Positions 147-52,560 of a stretch of 64,000 bases of DNA are shown here, one piece after another. A program made the position numbers and the translations under genes. Source of the DNA: Treponema sp. (lineage in GTDB: Bacteria; Spirochaetota; Spirochaetia; Treponematales; Treponemataceae). The notes beneath the pieces were generated by a model that saw nothing but the letters and a program-made list of their open reading frames with translations, was not told where the DNA came from and ran no database searches. The DNA lies in NCBI GenBank assembly GCA_017525605.1, contig JAFXSM010000033.1, forward strand, positions 10,747 to 74,746, given 5' to 3'. Every line of letters begins with the position of its first letter. Positions within the stretch are counted from its first letter, which is position 1.

Positions 147-348
147 CGTTTTCCATTTTAGCACGGTTTTTAAGAAAAATCGAAACGTTTTTAGGCAAAT
201 GCCGAATTTTACAATTCAGTGGTATAAACGAGCGGAAGCGAGGTTCCACCTTCAAAAACGGTTGCCGTTGCGCAATTATTTTCTAAGCATTGCGTCGTGG
301 AGGCAACCGTTCACGGCACGAGCTGTCGCTCGTACCTTTTCCTTTGCA

Positions 349-1674
349 TTAATTCGACTTTTTGTCTTTCGGCAAAATCAAATTCAATACGATTGCGAGG
401 AGGAATACTGTCGCGACGCAGTTTTCCGCGAAGACGCTCTGGAGGAGTTTCGGGAACAGCTCGAAGATTTTCGGGACCTGCGTGAAGCCGAGTCCGATTG
501 AGAGCGAGAGCGCAGAAATCGTGATGTTCCTTTCTGAGAATCCGCATTTTGAGAGCATCTTGATTCCGCTGATGACGATTGTTCCGAACATCATTATCGT
601 GCAGCCGCCGAGAACTGCCTGCGGGACAGTAGTGAGAACCGCGCCGACAATAGGGAAGATTCCCGCGATGATCATTATGACCGCGCCAGTTCCGATTGCG
701 AACCTGTTCACGACTTTTGTCATTGCCACGAGACCGATGTTCTGGCTGAACGAAGTTATCGGTGTGCAGCCGAAAACGGAAGCGAGGGAAGAGATGAATC
801 CGTCACAAGCGAGCGAGCCTGAAATCTCGCGCTCCGTGATGTCCCTGTCGAGCGCAGTCGAGCAGACCGCGCTTGAGTCTCCGATTGTTTCCGTTGCCGA
901 GACGAGGAAGATTACGCTCATTGCGACGATTGCGCTCGCGTTGAATTCAAACTTGAAAGGCATGACTGCAGGAAGTCCGATTATCTTTGACGAGGCGACC
1001 GCGCTGAAATCTACCATTCCGAGGCAGATTGAGAGAATGTAGCCTACGACAAGACCAATCAGAACTGCGATGAGCTTGAGATATCCTTTTGCGAAATAGC
1101 TGAATCCGAGGCTGACCGCGAGAGTCACCGAGCCGACAATCCAGTTGTGCGCCGCGCCGAAATCAGCAGCTCCCTGTCCGCCCGCAAACGAATTCGCGCC
1201 GACAGAGAGCAATGAGAATCCGATTGCAGTGACGACCGTTGCCGCGACGACAGGCGAAATCAGCTTTATCCAGTACTTTGCGAAAAGTCCGAGCACGCCC
1301 TCGATGAGTCCGCCGACGAGCACCGCGCCCATGATTGCTCCGTATCCGTATGTCGTTCCGATGAAAATCGAAATCGAGAGGAACGTGAAGCTGATTCCCA
1401 TTACAATCGGGAGTTTCGCGCCGACTCTCCAAAGAGGGAAGAGCTGAATGAGCGTTCCGATTCCTGCGATAATCATTGCGTTCTGGACAAGTCGCGCGCT
1501 CAAGCCCTGCTCGATTCCGCAGATGTTCGCGAGTATGATTACCGGCGTTATGTTTGCGACGAACATCGCGAGGATATGCTGAAGTCCCATCGGAACTGCT
1601 TTTCCGAGCGGAACGCGTCCGTCTGTCTTGTAGATGTTTTCTGCTGATGCGACATTTGCCGTATCTGTGTTCAT
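349..1674 (-). CDS. pbuX: NCS2-family nucleobase (xanthine/uracil) permease
   Basis: ORF 349..1713 is a polytopic membrane protein with an NCS2-like sequence. I prefer the internal ATG at 1674 (MNTDTANV...), which is 4 nt after the xpt stop and preceded by AGGAG. It lies directly downstream of xpt, as in xpt-pbuX operons. Confidence 0.85.
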   Translation of the reverse strand: MNTDTANVASAENIYKTDGRVPLGKAVPMGLQHILAMFVANITPVIILANICGIEQGLSARLVQNAMIIAGIGTLIQLFPLWRVGAKLPIVMGISFTFLSISIFIGTTYGYGAIMGAVLVGGLIEGVLGLFAKYWIKLISPVVAATVVTAIGFSLLSVGANSFAGGQGAADFGAAHNWIVGSVTLAVSLGFSYFAKGYLKLIAVLIGLVVGYILSICLGMVDFSAVASSKIIGLPAVMPFKFEFNASAIVAMSVIFLVSATETIGDSSAVCSTALDRDITEREISGSLACDGFISSLASVFGCTPITSFSQNIGLVAMTKVVNRFAIGTGAVIMIIAGIFPIVGAVLTTVPQAVLGGCTIMMFGTIVISGIKMLSKCGFSERNITISALSLSIGLGFTQVPKIFELFPKLLQSVFAENCVATVFLLAIVLNLILPKDKKSN

Positions 1675-1678
1675 TTTT

Positions 1679-2260
1679 CTAGCTCCTGAATTCGATTTCG
1701 CCTTTCTCGGCATCCATTTTTTCTACGATCGCGATTGACTCAAGCTTGAATCCCTTGTCGCGGAGTGTCTGTCCGCCGCTCTGGAATCCCTTCTCGATTG
1801 CGATTCCGATTCCCGAGACCGTCGCGCCTGCCTGCCTGCAAATCTCGATAAGTCCGAGTGCGGCCTGACCGTGCGCCATGAAGTCGTCTATGATGAGAAT
1901 CTTGTCGTTCGGGCTGATGTACTTTTTCGTGACGAAAACGTGGTTGTTCACTTTGTGCGTGAACGACATAACGTCCGACATGTATTTGTCGTCGTCCTGA
2001 ACGACCGTCTGCGTCTTCTTCGCGAAAACTACAGGCACGTCGCCGAAATGCCTTGCGACCAGACATGCAAGACCGATTCCCGATGCCTCAATCGTAAGGA
2101 TTTTTGTGACTTCGATTCCTTCAAATCTTCTTTTGAATTCCGCTCCGATTTTGTCCATGAGAGCGACATCAATCTGATGGTTCAGGAAGCTGTCAACTTT
2201 GAGGATGTTGCCCGGCTTTATGATGCCGTCTTTCTTTATTCGTTCTTCGAGAAAATTCAT
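1679..2260 (-). CDS. xpt: xanthine phosphoribosyltransferase
   Basis: 193 aa. The N-terminus MNFLEERIKKDGIIKPGNILKVDSFLNHQID and the PRPP-binding motif ILIIDDFMAHG are typical of Xpt. Confidence 0.92.
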   Translation of the reverse strand: MNFLEERIKKDGIIKPGNILKVDSFLNHQIDVALMDKIGAEFKRRFEGIEVTKILTIEASGIGLACLVARHFGDVPVVFAKKTQTVVQDDDKYMSDVMSFTHKVNNHVFVTKKYISPNDKILIIDDFMAHGQAALGLIEICRQAGATVSGIGIAIEKGFQSGGQTLRDKGFKLESIAIVEKMDAEKGEIEFRS

Positions 2261-2878: not shown

Positions 2879-2952
2879 TTCTTGCTCCTAAAAATTGTGT
2901 TCGTGCGATTTTCCGTTGCCCATGCAATGGAATTAAACTTGTATTGTAATAA

Positions 2953-3067
2953 AAATTTTGGAAACAAGCTATCGGCGAGAACCCTATATGAAAAACGGCA
3001 GTACCGCTACGCGGTGGCTGAATGTTTTTCATACAGGAACCTCGCCTACGCTTGTTTCCAAAATTGA
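2953..3067 (+). repeat. Copy 1 of a ~115-nt rod-like hairpin element (three copies in the window)
   Basis: AATTTTGGAAACAAGC...GGCGAG-AAC-CCTATATGAAAAAC-GGCAGTACCGCTACGCGGTGGCTGA-...GTTTTTCATACAGG-AAC-CTCGCC...GCTTGTTTCCAAAATT. It is near-identical to 44041-44151 and 47815-47932. It is intergenic, between the thrH start and the sigma-factor gene. Confidence 0.9.
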
Positions 3068-3402
3068 TTCGCAAAATTTGACATTCAAATTTCTATAAGT
3101 ATTGCTTAGTGGATGCAAGCGGCGCGGCACGGCTTGCGCCGTACCTTCATTTAAGGCGATTTGAAAATGAATTTTTCATTAAGTTTGCTATAAAAATTCA
3201 AAGAATTGAATTTCGTTTTTAAGAACAGTATAAGATTTTATTTATAAACATTGAAACTAGATTGAAAAGCAGGCTGTTTAATATATACTGAACCCGTTAG
3301 ATAACAAGTTTTTAAGATTTGTTGTCAGAAATAACAAACGGATGCACCCAATTTAAAAATCGTTTTGAAACTTCGGTTCTTGAAAAAATTAGGAGGCAGT
3401 CT

Positions 3403-11627: not shown

Positions 11628-12275
11628 ATGAGCGAAGAAACAGCAAAAGAAACTGAAAAGACTGAGAATCAGTGCGAGAACGCTGAGAATCAGAATCAGA
11701 CAGAAGAAAAAGTTGAGAATCAGACAAATCAGGCAGAGGAAAAGGCTGGGTCTGAAAAAGAAGCTGAGTCCGAAGAGAAAAAAGAAGAGACCAGCGAGGA
11801 AAAAATCGCCCGACTCGAAAAAGAGGTCGAGGCATTGAAGGCGCAGATTGAGGAGTCGAAGAAAGAGGCTCTCTACAGGGCTGCCGAAAACGAGAACTGG
11901 CGAAAAAGAATGATGCAGCAGAAAGAGGACGCAGTCGCTTATGCGAACTCAAGCCTTCTTTCTGATTTGCTTGACAGCTTGGACAACTTTGACAGGACTG
12001 TCGAGTCTGCCGCGACTGCCACTGACCCGAAATCAATTGCCGACGGCGTTACGATGATAAATAAGTCGCTCGTCGGAATGCTTGAAAGCAAGTATGGTCT
12101 TGTCGGCTACGGTGCGGTCGGCGACGCTTTCGACCCTGACATTCACGAGGCAATCGGAATGCAGGAAGGCGACGTTAGCGAAGAGCAGCTTGCGGCCGTG
12201 TATCTCAAGGGATACAAGCTCAAGGACAAAGTAATCAGGCACGCGAAGGTCATGGTTGTAAAACCGAAAGCGTGA
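11628..12275 (+). CDS. grpE: nucleotide exchange factor GrpE with acidic N-terminal extension
   Basis: 215 aa. GrpE core (YRAAENENWRKR...GYKLKDKVIRHAKVMV). Located immediately upstream of dnaK. Confidence 0.93.
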   Translation: MSEETAKETEKTENQCENAENQNQTEEKVENQTNQAEEKAGSEKEAESEEKKEETSEEKIARLEKEVEALKAQIEESKKEALYRAAENENWRKRMMQQKEDAVAYANSSLLSDLLDSLDNFDRTVESAATATDPKSIADGVTMINKSLVGMLESKYGLVGYGAVGDAFDPDIHEAIGMQEGDVSEEQLAAVYLKGYKLKDKVIRHAKVMVVKPKA

Positions 12276-12329: not shown

Positions 12330-14273
12330 ATGGGAAAGATTATTGGTATTGACTTGGGAACGACAAACTCTTGCGTTTCAGTAATGGAAAATGGAAAGCC
12401 TGTTGTAATTCAGAATTCTGAGGGCGGAAGAACTACTCCTTCTATCGTCGGCTTCACAGCAAAGGGCGAGAGAATCGTCGGTCTTCCTGCAAAGAACCAG
12501 ATGGTCACAAATCCAAAAAACACTGTCTATTCTATCAAGCGTTTCATCGGACACAGATATTCTGAATTGACTGGAGAAGCTACACGCGTTCCATATACAG
12601 TCGTTGACAACGGTCAGGACGTTCGCGTTGAGGTCACAGAGAACGGCGAGCAGAAAAAGTTCTCTCCACAGGAAATCTCAGCATTCATTCTCCAGAAGAT
12701 GAAGAAGACTGCGGAGGATTATCTTGGCGAGCCGGTCACGGACGCAGTAATCACAGTTCCTGCATACTTCAACGACTCACAGAGACAGGCAACTAAGGAC
12801 GCTGGAAAAATCGCAGGTCTCAACGTTCAGAGAATCATCAACGAGCCGACTGCGGCTGCTCTTGCATTCGGTTTCGAGAAAGACCAGTCAAAAGAGAAGA
12901 CAATCGCTGTTTACGACTTGGGTGGCGGTACATTCGATATCTCTATCCTTGAGCTTGCTGACGGCGTTTTCGAAGTAAAATCAACAAACGGTGATACACA
13001 CCTCGGTGGTGACGACTGGGACCGCAAGGTCGTCAACTGGCTCATCGACGGATTCAAGGCTGACACAGGAATCGATTTGAGCGGTGACTCAATGGCATTG
13101 CAGAGACTCCGCGAGGCTGCTGAGAACGCAAAGATTTCTCTTTCAAACCAGACATCGGTCGATATCAACCTTCCGTTCATCACAGCTGATGCTACAGGTC
13201 CAAAGCACTTGCAGAAGTCTTTGACACGCGCGCAGTTCGAGCAGATGACAGATGATTTGTTCGAGAGAACAAAGGCTCCTTGTATCACGGCAATGAAAGA
13301 CGCAGGCGTTACTGCTGACCAGATTGACGAGGTTCTCCTTGTCGGTGGTTCTTCAAGAATGCCGAAAGTTCAGGAAATCGTAAAAGCAATCTTCGGAAAG
13401 GAAGGTTCAAAATCTGTAAACCCAGATGAAGCTGTTGCAGTCGGTGCAGCTGTTCAGGGCGGCGTTATCAAGGGCGACGTAAAGGACGTGCTCCTTCTCG
13501 ATGTAACACCTCTTTCACTCGGTATCGAGACAATGGGCGGCGTATTCACACCACTCATCGAGAAGAACACTCCAATCCCTACCACGAAGAGCCAGGTGTT
13601 CTCAACTGCGGCTGACGGTCAGACAGCAGTTACAATCCACGTTCTTCAGGGTGAACGCCCGATGGCAAAGGACAACAGAACGCTCGGAAACTTCAACTTG
13701 GAAGGAATCCCGGCAGCTCCACGCGGTGTTCCGCAGATTGAGGTCACATTCGACATCGATGCGAACGGTATCGTTCACGTTTCTGCACTGGACAAGGGAA
13801 CTGGAAAAGAGACACACATTCAGATTACTTCTTCTTCAGGTCTTTCTGAGGACGAAATCAACAGGATGGTCAAAGATGCAGAGGCACACGCTGACGAGGA
13901 CAAGAAGGCAAAGGACGCTGTTGACGCACGCAACGAGGCAGATTCTCTCATCAACGCGACAGACAAGAGCTTGAAGGAACTCGGCGACAAAGTTTCAGGT
14001 GCTGACAAGCAGGCTATCGACGATGCTAAGGCTGCATTGCAGAAGGCTCTCGAAGGCAATAATGTTGAGGACATCAAGGCAAAGACTGAGGCTTTGAAGC
14101 AGGCTTCTTACAAGATTGCTGAGCAGCTCTATCAGCAGCAGGGCGCAGCAGGGGCTGCAGGCGCAGGAGCTGGTCCACAGGGCGGTGCAAATGCAGGGGA
14201 GTCTGACGGCGAGTTCAAGAGCGCAGGCTCTAGCAAGACTGATGATGCTCAGTTTGAAGTTCATGACAACTAA
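12330..14273 (+). CDS. dnaK: molecular chaperone DnaK (Hsp70)
   Basis: 647 aa. [24 protein letters not shown] and the full Hsp70 pattern. Confidence 0.99.
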
Positions 14274-15543: not shown

Positions 15544-16332
15544 TCAATCCCATGTTTTATATCCAGAGCCTGTTATCGGGATTTCTTCTCCGAGGTATGT
15601 CGGCTGTGCGTTGAACAGGACGAGGAAGAATGTTTTCACTCGTGCGAGCGACTCCCGGATTTCCCATTTTAGATGTAGTGCTTTTCGGAAGCGGTTCAGC
15701 TCCGGCGCGTCGTAGCCGACTGCGTTGATTCCGAGTTTTTTCGCGATGTACAGTGAGCGGTACAAATGGAATCTCTGCGTTACGATTACAGCGTCTTTCA
15801 CGCAAAACACGTCGCGTGCCCTGTACATCGTCTCGTATGTTGAAAATCCAGCGTGATCCATGAAAATCAGGTTTTCGTCGGCTTTGTAGATTTTTCGAAT
15901 GTAGAGCCTTGCAGCGTTCACTTCGTCGTAATCTTTTCTTCCGTGGTCGCCTGAGACAAGCACTTTTTGCACCGTTCCGTTTTTCAGAAGTTCCATTCCG
16001 CCCGCGATTCTGTCCCTGTAAACGTGCGAAATAACGTTGTTTTTGTAAACCATTGCGCCGGGAACTATTGCGACATATCTCTCCGGCACGTCGGCATAAT
16101 CCGTGTGGATTAGGTCTTTCGTTGAAAGAATCATGTACGCATTTATTACGATTATCGTGATTACAGAAATGCAGGCAAGAATCGCAACAGGAAGAATCAG
16201 CTTTTTCAGAATCGATTTTGTTTTTTGCAGTATTTTCAGAAGCGTTTTCAGAATAAGCGCATTTGCATTCCGAATATGCGGAAGAATTTTTTCAAATGCG
16301 CTTTTCAATATTTTAAGCGGATTTTTTTTCAT
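15544..16332 (-). CDS. sanA: SanA/YdcF (DUF218) family membrane protein
   Basis: 262 aa. N-terminal TM segment and DUF218 core (VLVSGDHGRKDYDEVNAARLY, IVTQRFHLYRSLYIAK). Confidence 0.8.
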   Translation of the reverse strand: MKKNPLKILKSAFEKILPHIRNANALILKTLLKILQKTKSILKKLILPVAILACISVITIIVINAYMILSTKDLIHTDYADVPERYVAIVPGAMVYKNNVISHVYRDRIAGGMELLKNGTVQKVLVSGDHGRKDYDEVNAARLYIRKIYKADENLIFMDHAGFSTYETMYRARDVFCVKDAVIVTQRFHLYRSLYIAKKLGINAVGYDAPELNRFRKALHLKWEIRESLARVKTFFLVLFNAQPTYLGEEIPITGSGYKTWD

Positions 16333-18023: not shown

Positions 18024-18194
18024 ACAAAAAACAGGCCGCACACGACGTGCGACCACACTTTGCAGAATCTTGTTTTCACAAAGAGGGACGTACAGGATGT
18101 ACGTCCACACTTTAGCAGAACCGCCATGCAGTTCTGCGTAGTTTTGATACGGCACGGATGCCGTATCAAAACTACTTATTCTGTTGGGCGTTTC
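18024..18194 (-). repeat. Direct repeat A: duplicated argG 3-prime end plus four-hairpin 3-prime UTR
   Basis: It aligns with 19955-20123 at roughly nine positions in ten by eye. It includes a decayed copy of the last argG codons and stop (18176-18194, minus sense) and a copy of the argG terminator hairpin. Confidence 0.9.
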
Positions 18195-19954: not shown

Positions 19955-19984
19955 ACAAAAACAGGCCGCACACGACGTGCGACC
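19955..19984 (-). terminator. intrinsic terminator of argG
   Basis: Minus sense GGTCGCAC-GTCGT-GTGCGGCC (8 bp, one G-U) followed by TGTTTTTGT. Confidence 0.65.
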
Positions 19985-20123
19985 ACACTTTGCAGAATCT
20001 TGTTTCCACTAAGCAGGACGTACAGGATGTACGTCCACACTTTAGCAGAACAGCGAAAGCTGTTCTGCGTAGTTTTATACGGCACGGATGCCATATAAAA
20101 CTACTTACTCTGTCGGGCGTTTC
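19955..20123 (-). repeat. Direct repeat B: native argG 3-prime end plus four-hairpin 3-prime UTR
   Basis: Partner of 18024-18194. It contains the real argG stop (20105-20107) and hairpins at 20069-20104, 20045-20068, 20016-20036 and 19964-19984. Confidence 0.9.
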
Positions 20124-36070: not shown

Positions 36071-37741
36071 ATGAAACGAATTTTAATTTTAATTGCAGTG
36101 TTTGTGATTCTTTCGTGTAAAACTACGAATGTTGAAGAAATCATCGAAGAGAAAAAAGAAGAGATAACTGAAGAAAAAATCGAACTCGAAGTAAAGGAAG
36201 AAGAAATCGTCGAAGAGAAAGTTGAGGAAATAGCCGAAGAAAAAATCGAAGAGAAAATTATCGAGGAAGTTGCGGAAGAGGTGATTGAAGAGAAAGAAGA
36301 GATAAAAGAAGAAATCTGCGTGGTTTCGAAAGAGGCTGAGAATCGGATTCCTGAGCCGAGGGAAGATGAATCTGTTGAAAATATAATAGAAGAGATTGTG
36401 GCGGAAGATGTTCCGCAGGAAGAGAAAAAGCCTGTGCTTAAAAAAATCGACATGACGAAATGGCGGTATATTGTTTCTGACGATGTTTATTTTCAGGTCG
36501 GAATCGAATATTGCGCGGTGCCGAAAGACAAGACGTATGAGAAAATCGCGATTTTCGTTCCGGGAAAATATTTCGACGCAAGAAAAAATTCAGCCGACTT
36601 TTACACTGCAAAGGCGAAAGAAGAATTTTCGAAAGTCGCATACGTTATGAATACGGGAAAAAATCATTCCGCATTGAAAGCTTCATCAATATACGAGCAG
36701 AAATCAAAAACATTCACGAGCGCGGGATTCATTTACGTCCACGCGGGTAGCAGGGCGGATACGCTTCTGGACTTCAAGAGCGCAATCCGGTTCGTGCGGT
36801 ACAACGCGGATTTGCTTCCGGGAACTACGGACGACTTTTTCGTGTTCGGAACTGGCGGGGGCGGAATTACAGCCGCAAAAATCGCGCTTTCAGGCGATGA
36901 GAAAATTTACGACGCGGAACTTGAAGAACTTGGCGCGGCACAGACGAGCGACAGAGTGAAAGGTGTGGGTGCGTGGTTTTCAATCAAAAATGCGGATTTT
37001 TCGGAATCGATTTCCAATGAAAAAAATAAAAGCGAAGAGAATTCACTTTTGCAAACTTCAATAGATGATTTTTTTTCTGTGACGAAATTTCCGTACAAGG
37101 CCGATTTTTCTTCCGACAGGCTTCCTGAGCCGGTGCGTCCTGGCGAATTCGTTGCGTCGGGCGGACTCCTCGAAGGCAAAGTCGTCAAAAAGCCGCGACG
37201 AGGAATTCCGAATCCGAACGAGGAAAACGAATACAAAAAGAAAAAGGAAAAGCGCGACAACGAGCTGAACGGAATTTTTGAGACACCGTTCGATTACGTT
37301 GCGGCACTGAACCACGAGGCGAAAAAAAACGGCGGAACGGACTGGATTTCTTACGACGAGGCAACTTCTTCCGCAAAAATAATCGACGCGAACGGACTCG
37401 GATTTTTTCTGAATCAGAATAATTCTGAAGATTCCGTGAAAAAATCAGCCGTAAATGAAAATGCGGGCGAAAAAAACGAATCCGTCAAAAGTCTTTTTAG
37501 CATTGCGCTTTCAAAGAAAAATGCGCCAGACGCAAAAAAAGCGGATCTTTGGAGAATCCGCTTCGGGCTTTTCGAGCGGAACATAAATCTTTCCCGTCAG
37601 GTTGAATTCGTCCGCCTTCTTCGCGAAAACGGCTTCGATGTTGATTTCGGCGCAGTCTGGCAGGCAAGAAATGAAGTGGCTGAGAGTTCTGGAAACACCG
37701 ATGAAAATTTCGCACTTTGGCTCAAGGAGAAAATGAAATGA
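36071..37741 (+). CDS. tannase-B-like lipoprotein with Glu-rich repeat linker; nucleophile position reads GTGGGG
   Basis: 556 aa. Lipobox ILSC and an EEK(I/V)EE low-complexity run encoded at about 36128-36316. FKSAIRFVRYNADLLPG...FVFGTGGGG aligns, from memory, to the tannase motif ...RYVKYN...GTSAGG. Confidence 0.7.
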   Translation: MKRILILIAVFVILSCKTTNVEEIIEEKKEEITEEKIELEVKEEEIVEEKVEEIAEEKIEEKIIEEVAEEVIEEKEEIKEEICVVSKEAENRIPEPREDESVENIIEEIVAEDVPQEEKKPVLKKIDMTKWRYIVSDDVYFQVGIEYCAVPKDKTYEKIAIFVPGKYFDARKNSADFYTAKAKEEFSKVAYVMNTGKNHSALKASSIYEQKSKTFTSAGFIYVHAGSRADTLLDFKSAIRFVRYNADLLPGTTDDFFVFGTGGGGITAAKIALSGDEKIYDAELEELGAAQTSDRVKGVGAWFSIKNADFSESISNEKNKSEENSLLQTSIDDFFSVTKFPYKADFSSDRLPEPVRPGEFVASGGLLEGKVVKKPRRGIPNPNEENEYKKKKEKRDNELNGIFETPFDYVAALNHEAKKNGGTDWISYDEATSSAKIIDANGLGFFLNQNNSEDSVKKSAVNENAGEKNESVKSLFSIALSKKNAPDAKKADLWRIRFGLFERNINLSRQVEFVRLLRENGFDVDFGAVWQARNEVAESSGNTDENFALWLKEKMK

Positions 37742-44004: not shown

Positions 44005-44040
44005 ATCGTTAGGTCGAATGTCGAGTTAATATTGATTGTA

Positions 44041-44151
44041 AAAGTTGGAAACAAGCTCCCGGCGAGAACCCTATTTGAAAAACGGCAGTACCGCTACGCG
44101 GTGGCTGAAGTTTTTCAAATAGGAACCTCGCCTACGCTTGTTTCCAGTTTT
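44041..44151 (+). repeat. Copy 2 of the ~115-nt rod-like hairpin element
   Basis: Same architecture and apex as 2953-3067. It lies between convergent pgi and the 44188 gene. Confidence 0.9.
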
Positions 44152-44187
44152 GCTTCGTAAAACTCGATATTTGACTTTTTTGTTTTT

Positions 44188-44619
44188 TTATCCTTGTATG
44201 AGGCGTTCAAGGATTTTAGATTCGATTTCCTGTAGTTTTTCTAGGGAGAACGGGATGTTTTTTGTCTGCATGAATGTCTGTGCGAGTTCCCGGGCTTTTT
44301 GGACTTGTTCCATTGTCGGTTGTTTTGGCGGCTGTTTCTGTTCCTGTTTTGCGGCGATGTTTCCCATGTTGCCGACGCTTGTTTTCGTGAACTGGCTTCT
44401 TAGTTGGCTTTGAGTCAATTCCGGTTGCGCTCTCTGTGTCATCTGTGCTTGCTGCGCTCGTTGCATCTGCTGCTGATGGATGTACATGCTCTGCGTCTGA
44501 ACGTTCTGCTGTGTCGGGCTGTTTGCTTTTATGATGTTGCTGCTCGGCTGTGCTCCGTTCATCATTTCCATTAGCATCTGCATAAGTGCCGAATTCGGGT
44601 CGGACATTTTGTTTGGCAT
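44188..44619 (-). CDS. Gln/Met-rich hypothetical protein
   Basis: ORF 44188..44715. I prefer the ATG at 44619 (MPNKMSDP...), which follows GGAGA. Low-complexity Q-rich centre. Confidence 0.5.
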   Translation of the reverse strand: MPNKMSDPNSALMQMLMEMMNGAQPSSNIIKANSPTQQNVQTQSMYIHQQQMQRAQQAQMTQRAQPELTQSQLRSQFTKTSVGNMGNIAAKQEQKQPPKQPTMEQVQKARELAQTFMQTKNIPFSLEKLQEIESKILERLIQG

Positions 44620-45173: not shown

Positions 45174-46574
45174 ATGAATATCACATCAAAAAAGTCTAGA
45201 CTCTCAGGTTCTGTTGTTGTTCCTGGTTCAAAATCTCACACAATCCGCGCTCTGATTCTTGCGACGATTGCGGAAGGCACTTCGCACATCAAGAATCCGC
45301 TTCCGAGTGCGGATTGCCTTTCTACGGCTGCGGCAGTTCCGCTTATCGGCTCAATGGTAGACTTGAACTTGTCAACCGAGGGCGAGCCTGGGACTTCGTG
45401 GACGGTTTGCGGTGCCGGAAGTCAAGTTCATCTTCCTGACGACGTAATCAATGTCGGAAATTCGGGGTCGCTTTTGTATTTTCTCGCTCCGATTGCCGCG
45501 ACTTTTGATGGCGACACAGTTTTTACGGGCGACGATTCAATCAGAAAACGCCCGGTTCAGCATGTAATCGATTCGATTAATCAGCTTTCGGATAAAAAAT
45601 CATTCGTGACTGTTCCCGGAAAAAACGGCTGTCCGATGGTAATCCGAGGTCCTATCCATAGCGGAACTGTGAAAACCTAGGGCGAAATTTCAAGCCAATA
45701 TGTCACAGGATTGATGCTCGCTGGAATTCTCCTTGACGGCGGAATCAAACTTGAGCTTTCGAATCCGAAAGAGACTCCGTATCTTACGATGACACAGAAG
45801 TGGTTCGAGAAAGTCGGCGTGGAATGTTCGATTTCCGATGATTTCAAGAAAATCGAAGTAAAGCAGAACAAAAATCTCAAGGCGTTCACGACGACGATTC
45901 CGAGCGATTGGGAAGGCGTTGTGTTTCCGCTTGTCGCAGGTCTTTTAAGCGAGTCCGGCTCGAAAATCACAATCGAAAACATCGACGGAAGCGGAACTCA
46001 GGGCGATGACGCTATCGTCAAGATTCTCCAGTCTGTCGGCGGAAGAATCGTGTGGGACAAGGAAAAATTCACAATCACCGTTGAGCCTTCTCGCCTTACG
46101 ACAGAAAATCTCCCGGACAAGACCCTCCGCGTCAAAATGTCTCCGTTCCCTGATGCGATTTGCGCTCTTGCTGTTGCGGCTTGTTTTACCGAGGGCACGA
46201 CAATCCTTGAGGATGCCGCAGTTTGCAGGCGGAAGGAAACTGACAGAATCAAAGTCCTTAAAATCGAGCTTTCAAAACTCGGCGCGGAAGTTGAGGAAAA
46301 AGAAGATGCCCTGATTATTCACGGCCACGCGCCTTTCCTTGCCAACGGAGGAAAGAATCCCGAATTCGTTCTGCACGGCGGGCTTTGCGAAAGCTACATG
46401 GATCACAGGATGGCGATGTCGCTTGCGTGCCTTGGAATCGGTCTTCCGAAAGGGGAGAGCGTCATCGTGAAAGATGCCGAATGCTGTTCCGTGAGCTTCC
46501 CGAAATTCTTTGAAGTGATGCGCGGAATCGGATGCAGCTTTGAGGAACTTGACGTGATTTCAATGAATCTTTAA
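45174..46574 (+). pseudogene. aroA: 3-phosphoshikimate 1-carboxyvinyltransferase (EPSP synthase) interrupted by one in-frame TAG at 45678-45680
   Basis: ORFs 45174..45680 and 45711..46574 are in the same frame. Reading through gives ...GTVKT-stop-GEISSQYVTGLMLAG, and the S-S-Q-Y segment is the conserved AroA motif. Confidence 0.85.
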
Positions 46575-46646: not shown

Positions 46647-47783
46647 ATGAAACTTACTTGTGGTATCGTCGGTTTGCCGAACGTCGGTAAATCAACAATT
46701 TTTTCTGCCCTGACAAAGGCACCTGCAGAAGCTGCGAATTATCCGTTCTGCACGATTGAGCCGAATCACGGTGTCGTCGAGCTTCCAGATGAAAGGCTCG
46801 ATTTCATGGCATCTGTTTTCCAGCCGAAAAAGAAGATTCCTGCGACTGTCGATTTCGTTGACATCGCTGGTCTCATAAAGGGCGCATCGAAGGGCGAGGG
46901 ACTCGGAAACCAGTTCCTTGCGAACATCCGCGAGACTTCCGTAATCGCGCACGTCGTCCGCTGCTTCGACAACCCTGACATCCAGCACGTCCGCGAAGAT
47001 GCCAAGACTGACGCTCCGATTGATCCTGAGAGCGACATTCTCACAATCAACTACGAGCTTTGTCAGGCCGACATCGACACGATAACGAAGCGCGAGGAGA
47101 AAATCGTGAAAGAGGTGCGCGCGCTCGGAAAGGAAGCTGAGAAAAAATATGCCGGCTACAAAAGCGCGATTGCAAAAATCATGCCGCTTCTTCAGGACGG
47201 AAAGTGCGCGAGACAGGCGGAACTCACTGACGAGGAGAAAGCTGGCATTTACGACTTGCATCTTCTCACTGTGAAACCGCAGCTTTTCGTGTGCAACATC
47301 GACGAGGACACAATTGCGGAAGGAACGAACAAATATGTCGAGACTGTGAAGAAACTTGCAGCAGAGGAAAAATCGGAAGTCATCGTCATCTGCGGAAAAT
47401 TCGAGTCCGACCTTGCGGACATCACTGACGAAAACGACAGGAAGGACTTCATGGAAAGCGTCGGCTTGAAAGAGTCAGGTCTTACAGTCCTCGCACGCGC
47501 CGCATATCACCTGATGGGACTGCGCACATTCTTCACTGGCGGTCCGGACGAGTGCCGCGCATGGACAATCCACAACGGCGACCTAGCTCCGCAGGCAGCC
47601 GGCGTAATCCACACCGACTTTGAAAAAGGCTTCATCAAGGCAGAAGTCTATTCCGTTGACGACCTCCGCGAATACGGCTCAGAGGCAGAAATCAAATCAC
47701 ACGGAAAATATAGGCAGGAAGGAAAAGAGTACGTCGTCCAGGACGGAGACTGTATCTTCTTCAAATTCAATGTGACGAAGTAA
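46647..47783 (+). CDS. ychF: redox-regulated ATPase YchF
   Basis: 378 aa. GIVGLPNVGKST and the TGS-like C-terminus. Confidence 0.95.
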   Translation: MKLTCGIVGLPNVGKSTIFSALTKAPAEAANYPFCTIEPNHGVVELPDERLDFMASVFQPKKKIPATVDFVDIAGLIKGASKGEGLGNQFLANIRETSVIAHVVRCFDNPDIQHVREDAKTDAPIDPESDILTINYELCQADIDTITKREEKIVKEVRALGKEAEKKYAGYKSAIAKIMPLLQDGKCARQAELTDEEKAGIYDLHLLTVKPQLFVCNIDEDTIAEGTNKYVETVKKLAAEEKSEVIVICGKFESDLADITDENDRKDFMESVGLKESGLTVLARAAYHLMGLRTFFTGGPDECRAWTIHNGDLAPQAAGVIHTDFEKGFIKAEVYSVDDLREYGSEAEIKSHGKYRQEGKEYVVQDGDCIFFKFNVTK

Positions 47784-47814
47784 AGCGTATAGCGAGTTCA
47801 TTGCTAATTGAAGG

Positions 47815-47932
47815 GCAAGTATACAAGCTTTCGGCGAGAACCCCACCTCCAAAACGGCAGTACCGCTTCGCGGTGGCTGAGTGTTTTGGAGGTGGGAACC
47901 TCGCCTACGCTTGTACACTTGCACTTGGTTTA
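47815..47932 (+). repeat. Copy 3 of the ~115-nt rod-like hairpin element (covarying copy)
   Basis: GCAAGTATACAAGC...GGCGAG-AAC-CCCACCTCCAAAAC-GGCAGTACCGCTTCGCGGTGGCTGA-GT-GTTTTGGAGGTGGG-AAC-CTCGCC-TAC-GCTTGTACACTTGC. Confidence 0.9.
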
Positions 47933-48005
47933 AAAAATCGATATTCAGTCTTTTTTTTGCACAAAATGAAAAATGCGAGATAAGTAGTTATTGAGGTGTT
48001 TCATT

Positions 48006-52482: not shown

Positions 52483-52515
52483 GATTTATAGACATATCAA
52501 TTTAATTTTTTTTGA

Positions 52516-52560
52516 CCATCGGATTTGGCTTGCAAGTTCTAATCCGGTGGCTTTTTTTTT
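52516..52560 (+). terminator. intrinsic terminator
   Basis: CCATCGGATT...AATCCGGTGG followed by CTTTTTTTTT. Confidence 0.8.

Follow-up and report, generated by a model that had tools for sequence, protein, structure and literature searches.

The 118-nt hairpin at positions 47815-47932 of the window (the whole 64 kb stretch of DNA analysed here) is the body of a 166-168 bp non-autonomous transposable element, a MITE, of uncultured rumen and gut Treponema. Across the family, the three helices of the hairpin (P1, P2 and P3) conserve pairing rather than the sequence of their arms, and the termini behave as ordinary transposase sites. The seven base-pair swaps that distinguish this copy (copy 3) from copies 1 and 2 are an old subfamily difference and did not evolve at the ychF locus where copy 3 now stands. 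Taken as a whole, the data make it probable that this is a Treponema MITE whose hairpin is under element-level selection. The result turns a candidate new structured RNA into an identified mobile element and prevents a false ncRNA annotation. It also adds an abundant MITE family (four copies in 64 kb) to uncultured rumen Treponema, in which mobile DNA has barely been described.

Anatomy of the element and its insertion sites

Copy 3 is flanked by the ychF stop codon (47781-47783) on one side and by the start of a lipoprotein-type Exo_endo_phos gene (at about 48007) on the other. The sequence-only reading described the hairpin and missed the longer element with terminal inverted repeats (TIRs) at 47783-47950, of which the hairpin is the core. 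It also missed a fourth copy on the minus strand (192-359), which was found by a repeat search and a pattern search of the window. The parts of copy 3 and the other copies are as follows.

47783..47950, plus strand: copy 3, full MITE of 168 bp (alignment to the 70-copy family and nhmmer)
47783..47796, plus strand: left TIR of copy 3, degenerate, AAGCGTATAGCGAG against the consensus GGTCGAATGTCGAG, 8/14 matches (70-copy alignment)
47815..47828, plus strand: 5' arm of P1, the outer stem, with its partner at 47909-47922 (MFE fold and RNAalifold consensus)
47833..47838, plus strand: 5' arm of P2, GGCGAG, with its partner CTCGCC at 47900-47905 (MFE fold and RNAalifold consensus)
47842..47855, plus strand: 5' arm of P3, the hypervariable helix, CCCACCTCCAAAAC (sequence, MFE fold and haplotype table)
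47856..47882, plus strand: asymmetric apex GGCAGTACCGCTTCGCGGTGGCTGAGT, a 5-bp stem with a triloop on a 3-bp stem (MFE fold and RNAalifold)
47883..47896, plus strand: 3' arm of P3, GTTTTGGAGGTGGG (sequence, MFE fold and haplotype table)
47900..47905, plus strand: 3' arm of P2, CTCGCC (MFE fold and RNAalifold)
47909..47922, plus strand: 3' arm of P1 (MFE fold and RNAalifold)
47937..47950, plus strand: right TIR of copy 3, ATCGATATTCAGTC against the consensus CTCGACWTTCGMCC, followed by T8 (70-copy alignment)
44012..44176, plus strand: copy 2, full MITE with a perfect left TIR, GGTCGAATGTCGAGTT (sequence and nhmmer)
2926..3090 (approximate), plus strand: copy 1, left TIR lost or degenerate (nhmmer, profile positions 33-170)
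192..359, minus strand: copy 4, full length, 168 bp (nhmmer matches only profile positions 103-171)

Copy 2 is flanked by the convergent PGI gene and an ORF on the minus strand, and copy 1 stands upstream of a sigma-factor gene, in an intergenic region of the divergent kind. Copy 4 runs into the 3' end of a xanthine/uracil-permease-like gene (ORF 349..1713, minus strand), whose final residues (..KSN) and stop codon are provided by the left TIR of this copy, AAGTCGAAT followed by TAA; the 5' half of copy 4 is decayed or rearranged and the family fold is lost. The only ORFs that overlap copy 3 are short ones of 60 and 75 aa within the hairpin, and these are spurious.

There are other features of the window besides the MITE copies. 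Two direct repeats of 98 nt (18027-18124 and 19957-20054) are 95% identical and lie 1.93 kb apart; they are built from small G+C-rich hairpins, each followed by ACACTTT(R)GCAGAA, and appear to be another intergenic repeat family that is unrelated to the MITE. At 45174-46574 the EPSP synthase gene (aroA) is split into ORFs of 168 and 287 aa, as it is in L024. Other strains have the gene as a single 466-aa ORF, and the split may come from a frameshift, from decay to a pseudogene or from an error in the assembly. GAA-rich repeats with periods of 66 and 12 nt lie inside a coding region at 36134-36289, with a related stretch at 11760-11825; the translated sequence suggests an acidic Glu/Lys-rich repeat protein.

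The family was collected by scanning metagenomes for the apex motif, which gave 84 loci, about 76 of them with true copies, and the anatomy was read from wider flanks. A profile search of the 1.05 Mb of fetched DNA gives 93 full-length copies, representing 74 distinct loci, in addition to truncated copies and short derivatives that share only the element ends. The hosts are MAGs of uncultured Treponema sp., recovered from metagenomes of gut or rumen. The element has no coding capacity, and with a length of 166 bp in most copies it is well within the size of a MITE (under about 300 bp). The exact ends were found in 63 copies. They are TIRs of 14-17 bp, GGTCGAATGTCGAG(TTT) on the left and CTCGAC(A/T)TTCG(A/C)CC on the right, giving the family end pair GGTCGAATGTCGAG...CTCGACATTCGACC. 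Abutting them is a 5-bp direct duplication that is perfect in 34 of these 63 copies and matches at 4/5 positions in a further 9, with the target-site consensus T-W-W-T-A. The copies, of which the window holds at least four, are almost always intergenic, and they occur in both orientations and in all four gene contexts. Two derivatives of approximately 65-85 bp (L057:2362-2430 and L077:~12620-12707) have both TIRs, with the hairpin body absent or the interior unrelated.

For comparison of sites between strains we used contigs that encode exactly identical YchF, which come from ten strains. At the site downstream of ychF, L026 has no element, five strains have the variant seen in the window, and L022, L023, L027 and L029 carry another subfamily with P3 arms CCACTGTCGAATAC/GTATTCGACAGTGG; a third variant, in L031, ends at the contig edge. 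At the site downstream of the PGI gene, where copy 2 lies in the window, there is a canonical intrinsic terminator in L025 and L026 and other sequence in L023. Conversely, L022 carries an insertion at 15871-16060 and the matching site in the window, near 52530, is empty. Three sites are therefore polymorphic between strains with identical flanking proteins, although the empty sites are not clean single-event footprints. Presence that varies between such close strains shows that the element is an insertion, and differences of this kind could serve as a strain marker. Close to the PGI site in L023 there is also a block of about 4.7 kb (L023:2700-7510) that is absent from other strains and encodes ORF6N/Phage_pRha, a type I restriction-modification specificity subunit (Methylase_S) and a DUF4153 protein.

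The TIRs, the 5-bp target duplications, the dispersed copies and the empty sites identify the element as a MITE, and the contrast with a MITE that the sequence-only reading had implied does not hold. The 5-bp duplication and the TIRs point to a DDE enzyme, and a transposase of this type would mobilize the element in trans. No autonomous element with the same TIRs was found in the 1.05 Mb of fetched loci, nor in IMG/VR, PLSDB or INPHARED. One lead, a TIR next to an ORF at L081:13632, is the right half of a truncated MITE, and the other stray TIRs belong to short derivatives made by deletion or match by chance. No true copies came from viral contigs, plasmids or phages; four viral matches are chance hits in unrelated sequence. 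A search of a genome-contig collection with a P2-to-P2 pattern gave 21 loci, with one match each in unrelated, mostly high-GC genomes. All 21 were treated as chance hits, the two that were read (L002 and L006) being plain coding sequence. The species is apparently absent from the collection.

Conservation of pairing and the source of the matched changes

Read directly from copies 1, 2 and 3, the 5' arm of P3 is CCTATATGAAAAAC, CCTATTTGAAAAAC and CCCACCTCCAAAAC (the last at 47842-47855), and the 3' arm is GTTTTTCATACAGG, GTTTTTCAAATAGG and GTTTTGGAGGTGGG (the last at 47883-47896). Where copies 1 and 2 have CCTAT(A/T)TGAAAAAC on the 5' side and GTTTTTCA(T/A)A(C/T)AGG on the 3' side, copy 3 has CCCACCTCCAAAAC and GTTTTGGAGGTGGG, which differ at five positions per arm (3, 5, 6, 8 and 9 of the 5' arm; 6, 7, 9, 10 and 12 of the 3' arm). 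The direct reading bears out the original description of this 14-bp stem as carrying five swaps per arm, all of them complementary, and also that of the outer stem, in which GGAAAC/GTTTCC is changed to GTATAC/GTACAC with two compensated pairs and one A.C. Similarly, MFE folding recovers the fold that had been drawn for copies 1-3. The energies are -58 to -70 kcal/mol (z about -10), with 0 of 200 shuffles equally stable; taken over both strands they are -58 to -73 kcal/mol, again with z about -10. The accompanying claim that the loops and apex are fixed holds only approximately, although the AAC/AAC and CTAC loops do not vary. The 5' internal loop (TATC, TCCC and TTTC in copies 1, 2 and 3, respectively), the apical triloop (TAC in copies 1 and 2, TTC in copy 3) and the 3' side of the apex (GAAT, GAA and GAGT) all vary.

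The sequence-only reading proposed a covariation check on a larger alignment, and in an alignment of 70 distinct copies the covariation is clear. RNAalifold gives a structure of 42 pairs, 23 of them with double changes. When one further pair is added to this structure, 24 of the 43 pairs have double-sided changes, in 323 cells, and none of 500 shuffles reaches the observed value on any of five measures, although the copies are related and the shuffle test therefore overstates significance. The internal helices are paired in 97.4% of cells, in comparison with 86.7% when shuffled and 32-45% in slid controls with the partners shifted by 1-3 columns. The TIRs, treated as a 'helix', act as an internal control: they are paired in 85.9% of cells against 84.6% when shuffled, and two of their positions are unpaired in at least 40 of the 70 copies. 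The pairing constraint that had been read from three copies is thus far above chance in the family; the conclusion that selection on the paired structure produced it has a rival in homogenization of the arms, which is considered below.

Most of the variation falls in the central 8-9 bp of P3, where a position can have as many as four pair types. P3 occurs as 28 haplotypes, of which 17 are perfectly complementary (Watson-Crick) and 8 have only C.A or A.C mismatches; one has a G.T, two have arms of unequal length and were not scored, and transversion mismatches number 0. In P2, two pairs alternate between G-C and A-U across the family. Part of the conservation of the apex follows from the use of an apex pattern to retrieve the copies, but an independently found copy (L110:522-700) has the apex swap CAG/CTG to CTG/CAG, which is compensated. 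Rare variants are about one-third as frequent in stem columns as in non-stem columns (0.35 and 1.02 per column), a comparison that is confounded to the extent that 'private' copies come from poorly sampled subfamilies. The covariation implies a single-stranded, fold-back form of the element in vivo, and the fold between the TIRs would be one long hairpin of P1, P2 and P3 with the asymmetric apex.

Five copies (L035:3912-4104, L072:10785-10992, L110:6356-6563, L022:15871-16060 and L036:11046-11250) contain an additional mini-hairpin with perfect pairing (AACATCGC-TTG-GCGATGTT), inserted immediately 3' of the apex. The existence of these copies indicates that the apex tolerates insertions. In three of them (L072:10785-10992, L110:6356-6563 and L036:11046-11250) the 5' arm of P3 is also replaced (by GCAGCCTGCTTGCGCAGTCTTGC).

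Several P3 types are found in the same assemblies, each of them at several loci, and similar types are found in different Treponema species. Coexistence at multiple loci shows that these are subfamilies that spread after diverging; the family has split into groups distinguished chiefly by the central 8-9 bp of P3, and copy 3 is a member of another group than copies 1 and 2.

The cause of the matched changes is a separate matter, and the family is a natural test case for it, since fold selection and template switching at palindromes are competing explanations for compensatory changes in palindromic mobile DNA. The two models predict differently for each of three features: the hypervariable paired helix, the conserved mismatched loops and the unconstrained TIRs. 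We lean towards selection on the fold, as RNA or as single-stranded DNA, as the cause, a reading that is compatible with arm homogenization. By analogy with bcr1, ERIC and Correia, element-level selection on the hairpin is the most likely form. It would act on RNA when the element is co-transcribed with its neighbours, or on single-stranded DNA during replication or transposition, and lineages that lose the fold would cease to spread. Sequence constraint on P2, on the internal loops and on the apex makes these parts probable recognition features; the P3 core would be constrained only to remain paired and would act as a spacer helix.

Template switching is an established mechanism that homogenizes the arms of inverted repeats and turns imperfect repeats into perfect ones (PMC5941160, PMC7202029, PMC8604942). 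In the same MITE, quasipalindrome template switching or hairpin mismatch repair could copy mutations from one arm to the other whether or not the hairpin has a function. Almost no one-sided (wobble, G.U) intermediates are present, the transversion type makes up half of the rare double changes, and swaps of A-T to T-A and of G-C to C-G are common even among rare variants; the scarcity of intermediates and the transversion-type doubles fit a copying mechanism at least as well as stepwise selection. Additionally, the mismatched GCCCAT/ATGGAC exists alongside both of its possible 'repairs', GCCCAT/ATGGGC and GTCCAT/ATGGAC, and the orthologous copies in L076 and L078 differ by a single change, from C.A to T-A. 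However, arm copying should close the internal loops of 3-4 nt, and the mismatched loops are conserved and never closed (AAC/AAC is essentially invariant). It should also make the TIRs symmetric, and these stay asymmetric, being mismatched at the two positions noted above. The C.A mismatch is kept through the largest amplifications (subfamilies of 13, 8, 7 and 6 copies), and the decay of one arm of copy 4 has gone uncorrected. All of these features favour selection, as does the paucity of rare variants in stem columns, and we regard arm copying without selection as rather unlikely.

Against selection on the fold, the most abundant P3 haplotypes include a mismatch. Two further points count against the best explanation: DDE transposition is not known to require an internal hairpin, and no autonomous element with these TIRs was found in the 1.05 Mb of sampled sequence or in the viral, plasmid and phage collections. 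Orthologous copies show only 2 differences in 13 loci, too few to separate selection from homogenization.

Alternatively, a DNA-binding protein that acts as a dimer or in pairs, for example a transposase specific to the subfamily, could recognize the arms of P3 as inverted sites, and the arms would change jointly for that reason. The left and right ends of transposons generally co-vary because they are bound by the same transposase, and the P3 arms are at symmetric positions, approximately 60-73 bp from each end. However, 28 coexisting haplotypes, many of them in the same assemblies, would need many cognate proteins, and the actual termini are common to all subfamilies. Neighbouring haplotypes are one base pair apart, which is a better fit to drift under a pairing rule, and no associated protein gene was seen. 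We therefore consider joint protein recognition very improbable.

Gene ends, terminators and the folding strand

Copies are found within a few bases of gene ends. The ychF stop codon (window 47781-47783; L022:11135-11137) abuts or overlaps the end of the element. The window type has TAA as this codon; the L022 type has TAG, in which AG/G comes from the element's terminal (A)GG. In L026, the empty-site strain, the ychF TAA is followed by an A-run. The element thus reshapes gene ends: it supplies the stop-codon region of two genes in the window and displaces terminators.

There are two loci at which a terminator is affected. Comparison of the window at approximately 52505-52560 with L022:15820-16110 shows that the MITE occupies or interrupts a terminator that is intact in the strain without the element. 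Downstream of the PGI gene, comparison of L025 and L026 with the window at 44005-44190 shows the MITE in the place where an intact intrinsic terminator stands without it. Both loci keep the downstream T-tract. These cases are anecdotal and a general link with terminators was not seen.

Identification of the element itself as an intrinsic terminator was rejected: there is no terminator-like site at copy 3, where the T8 comes after the unpaired right TIR, and T-runs are equally frequent on the two sides of the element (19 and 19 of 63). This bears on the broader alternative that the hairpin is a free-standing structured ncRNA gene or a cis-regulatory RNA (an sRNA, a riboswitch-like element or a terminator) rather than mobile DNA. 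In favour of this are a highly stable fold, strong covariation and conservation in the loops and apex; copies 2, 3 and 4 lie just 3' of same-strand genes, and at two sites the element replaces the intrinsic terminator of other strains. However, an ncRNA gene does not account for TIRs, 5-bp duplications, both orientations, four gene contexts and presence or absence in near-identical strains. There are 0 matches to Rfam at gathering thresholds in the 64 kb window, and a permissive search gives only weak, generic hairpins of the microRNA type (the best is the MIR6020 precursor, a generic long hairpin, with 24 bits against a threshold of 118). Copy 3 is flanked by no promoter-like or terminator-like site, and an orientation-specific T-run after the element is absent. 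As an alternative to mobility, the ncRNA reading is largely refuted, and we give it hardly any credence.

If the MITE folds as a single strand, one of its two strands may be the one that matters, but the signals on this conflict. Among the variable mismatches in the stem there are 55 cells of A.C against 6 of G.T on the aligned strand, where A.C corresponds to G.U on the complement; counted as independent events in P3, there are about 8-10 A.C against 1 G.T. In 66 of the 70 copies it is the complementary strand that gives the more stable core hairpin. Pointing the other way, there are three near-invariant G.T pairs on the aligned strand. Where the neighbouring genes are in tandem, they run in the direction of the aligned strand in 24 cases and against it in 10; the other gene contexts are divergent (15) and convergent (7).

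A more far-reaching reading would make the element a mobile structured-RNA or single-stranded-DNA module with a strand-specific fold that is selected as such; alternatively, an unrecognized enzyme that requires the hairpin could be moving it. In the first case the invariant loops and apex would be a putative binding site for a protein encoded by the host or the element, and P3 would be a freely evolving spacer. The module would spread through a function that it delivers at terminator-like sites, such as 3'-end formation, processing or insulation of transcripts. The strand bias of the stem mismatches, the mini-hairpin insertions at the apex and the replacement of terminators at two loci hint at this possibility, which we judge improbable. 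The preferred reading is of a MITE moved in trans by a DDE-type transposase, with selection on its hairpin at the level of the element.

Comparison with known mobile repeats

REP sequences are G+C-rich units of 20-40 nt that carry a GTAG or CGTC tag, make no target duplication and are linked to a RAYT gene. Membership of the REP/REPIN class was rejected because the Treponema element has a 5-bp duplication and TIRs of 14-17 bp, and there is no REP-like unit in its sequence. Integron attC sites have R''/L''/L'/R' boxes, a GTTRRRY core and extrahelical bases, and stand in a cassette array next to intI. This class was also rejected: there is no GTTRRRY/RYYYAAC core at the ends of the element, its copies are scattered beside housekeeping genes, ychF, pgi and a permease gene among them, and it has target duplications. 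A hammerhead was rejected because the CUGANGA core is absent.

REPINs (REP doublets; Bertels and Rainey, 2011, PMC3116915) do resemble the Treponema element in being non-autonomous, hairpin-forming mobile DNA for which selection has been argued to act on the replicating element (PMC3116915). In contrast with it, they are moved by RAYT (Y1/HUH) transposases via single-stranded DNA, they have no classical TIRs or target duplications, and they are built of 20-40-nt REP units. TIMEs and IMU-type MITEs share with the Treponema element AT-rich 5-bp target duplications (IMU: PMC3184786), ends that start with G, a lack of coding sequence and mobilization in trans. The ends of the Tn3 family and of TIMEs are approximately 38 bp long and begin GGGG, whereas the ends here have GGTC or GGGC as their first bases. 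Neither a transposase nor a resolvase of the Tn3 family was seen, and membership among the Tn3-derived TIMEs cannot be claimed.

The bcr1 repeat of the Bacillus cereus group is reportedly the subject of studies by Okstad (2004), Klevan (2007) and Kristoffersen (2011). It is approximately 155 bp long, has 5-bp direct repeats and is transcribed (PMC3184786, PMC6542083). The likeness to the Treponema element (166 bp) is close: in both there are tens of dispersed, mostly intergenic copies at positions that are not conserved between strains, the 5-bp direct repeats are AT-rich (TTTAT for bcr1 and T-W-W-T-A here), and compensatory changes keep a stable fold. As here, no transposase has been identified for bcr1. 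The differences are that bcr1 belongs to Bacillota and the present element to Spirochaetota, the sequences being presumably unrelated and the two likened by description only; that bcr1 is cruciform-like, with two independent stem-loops instead of one long hairpin; and that bcr1 is known to be transcribed, while for the Treponema element co-transcription with its neighbours is a proposal.

ERIC/IRU, Correia (nemis) and RUP are imperfect palindromes of 100-170 bp with TIRs and target duplications that lie in intergenic regions, form long RNA hairpins when co-transcribed and may overlap gene ends (PMC3184786). In these respects they are like the Treponema element, whose RNA hairpin is a predicted one. 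They are also known to influence the processing or stability of mRNA (PMC3184786). They differ in that the target duplication is TA (2 bp) rather than 5 bp and in that the sequences and hosts are unrelated. Unlike them, the Treponema element has a sharply delimited hypervariable helix between highly conserved loops.

A literature search on the motifs and on Treponema repeats found no published description of this MITE family, although a census has shown Spirochaetes, including Treponema, to be unusually rich in MITEs (PMC11602168). MITEs with long hairpins are well known in bacteria, as ERIC, Correia, RUP, Nezha and Chunjie (PMC3184786), and compensatory changes have already been reported for bcr1 (PMC3184786) and for REPINs (PMC3116915). 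What is new is therefore this Treponema family; the category to which it belongs is a known one, its sharply delimited hypervariable helix notwithstanding.
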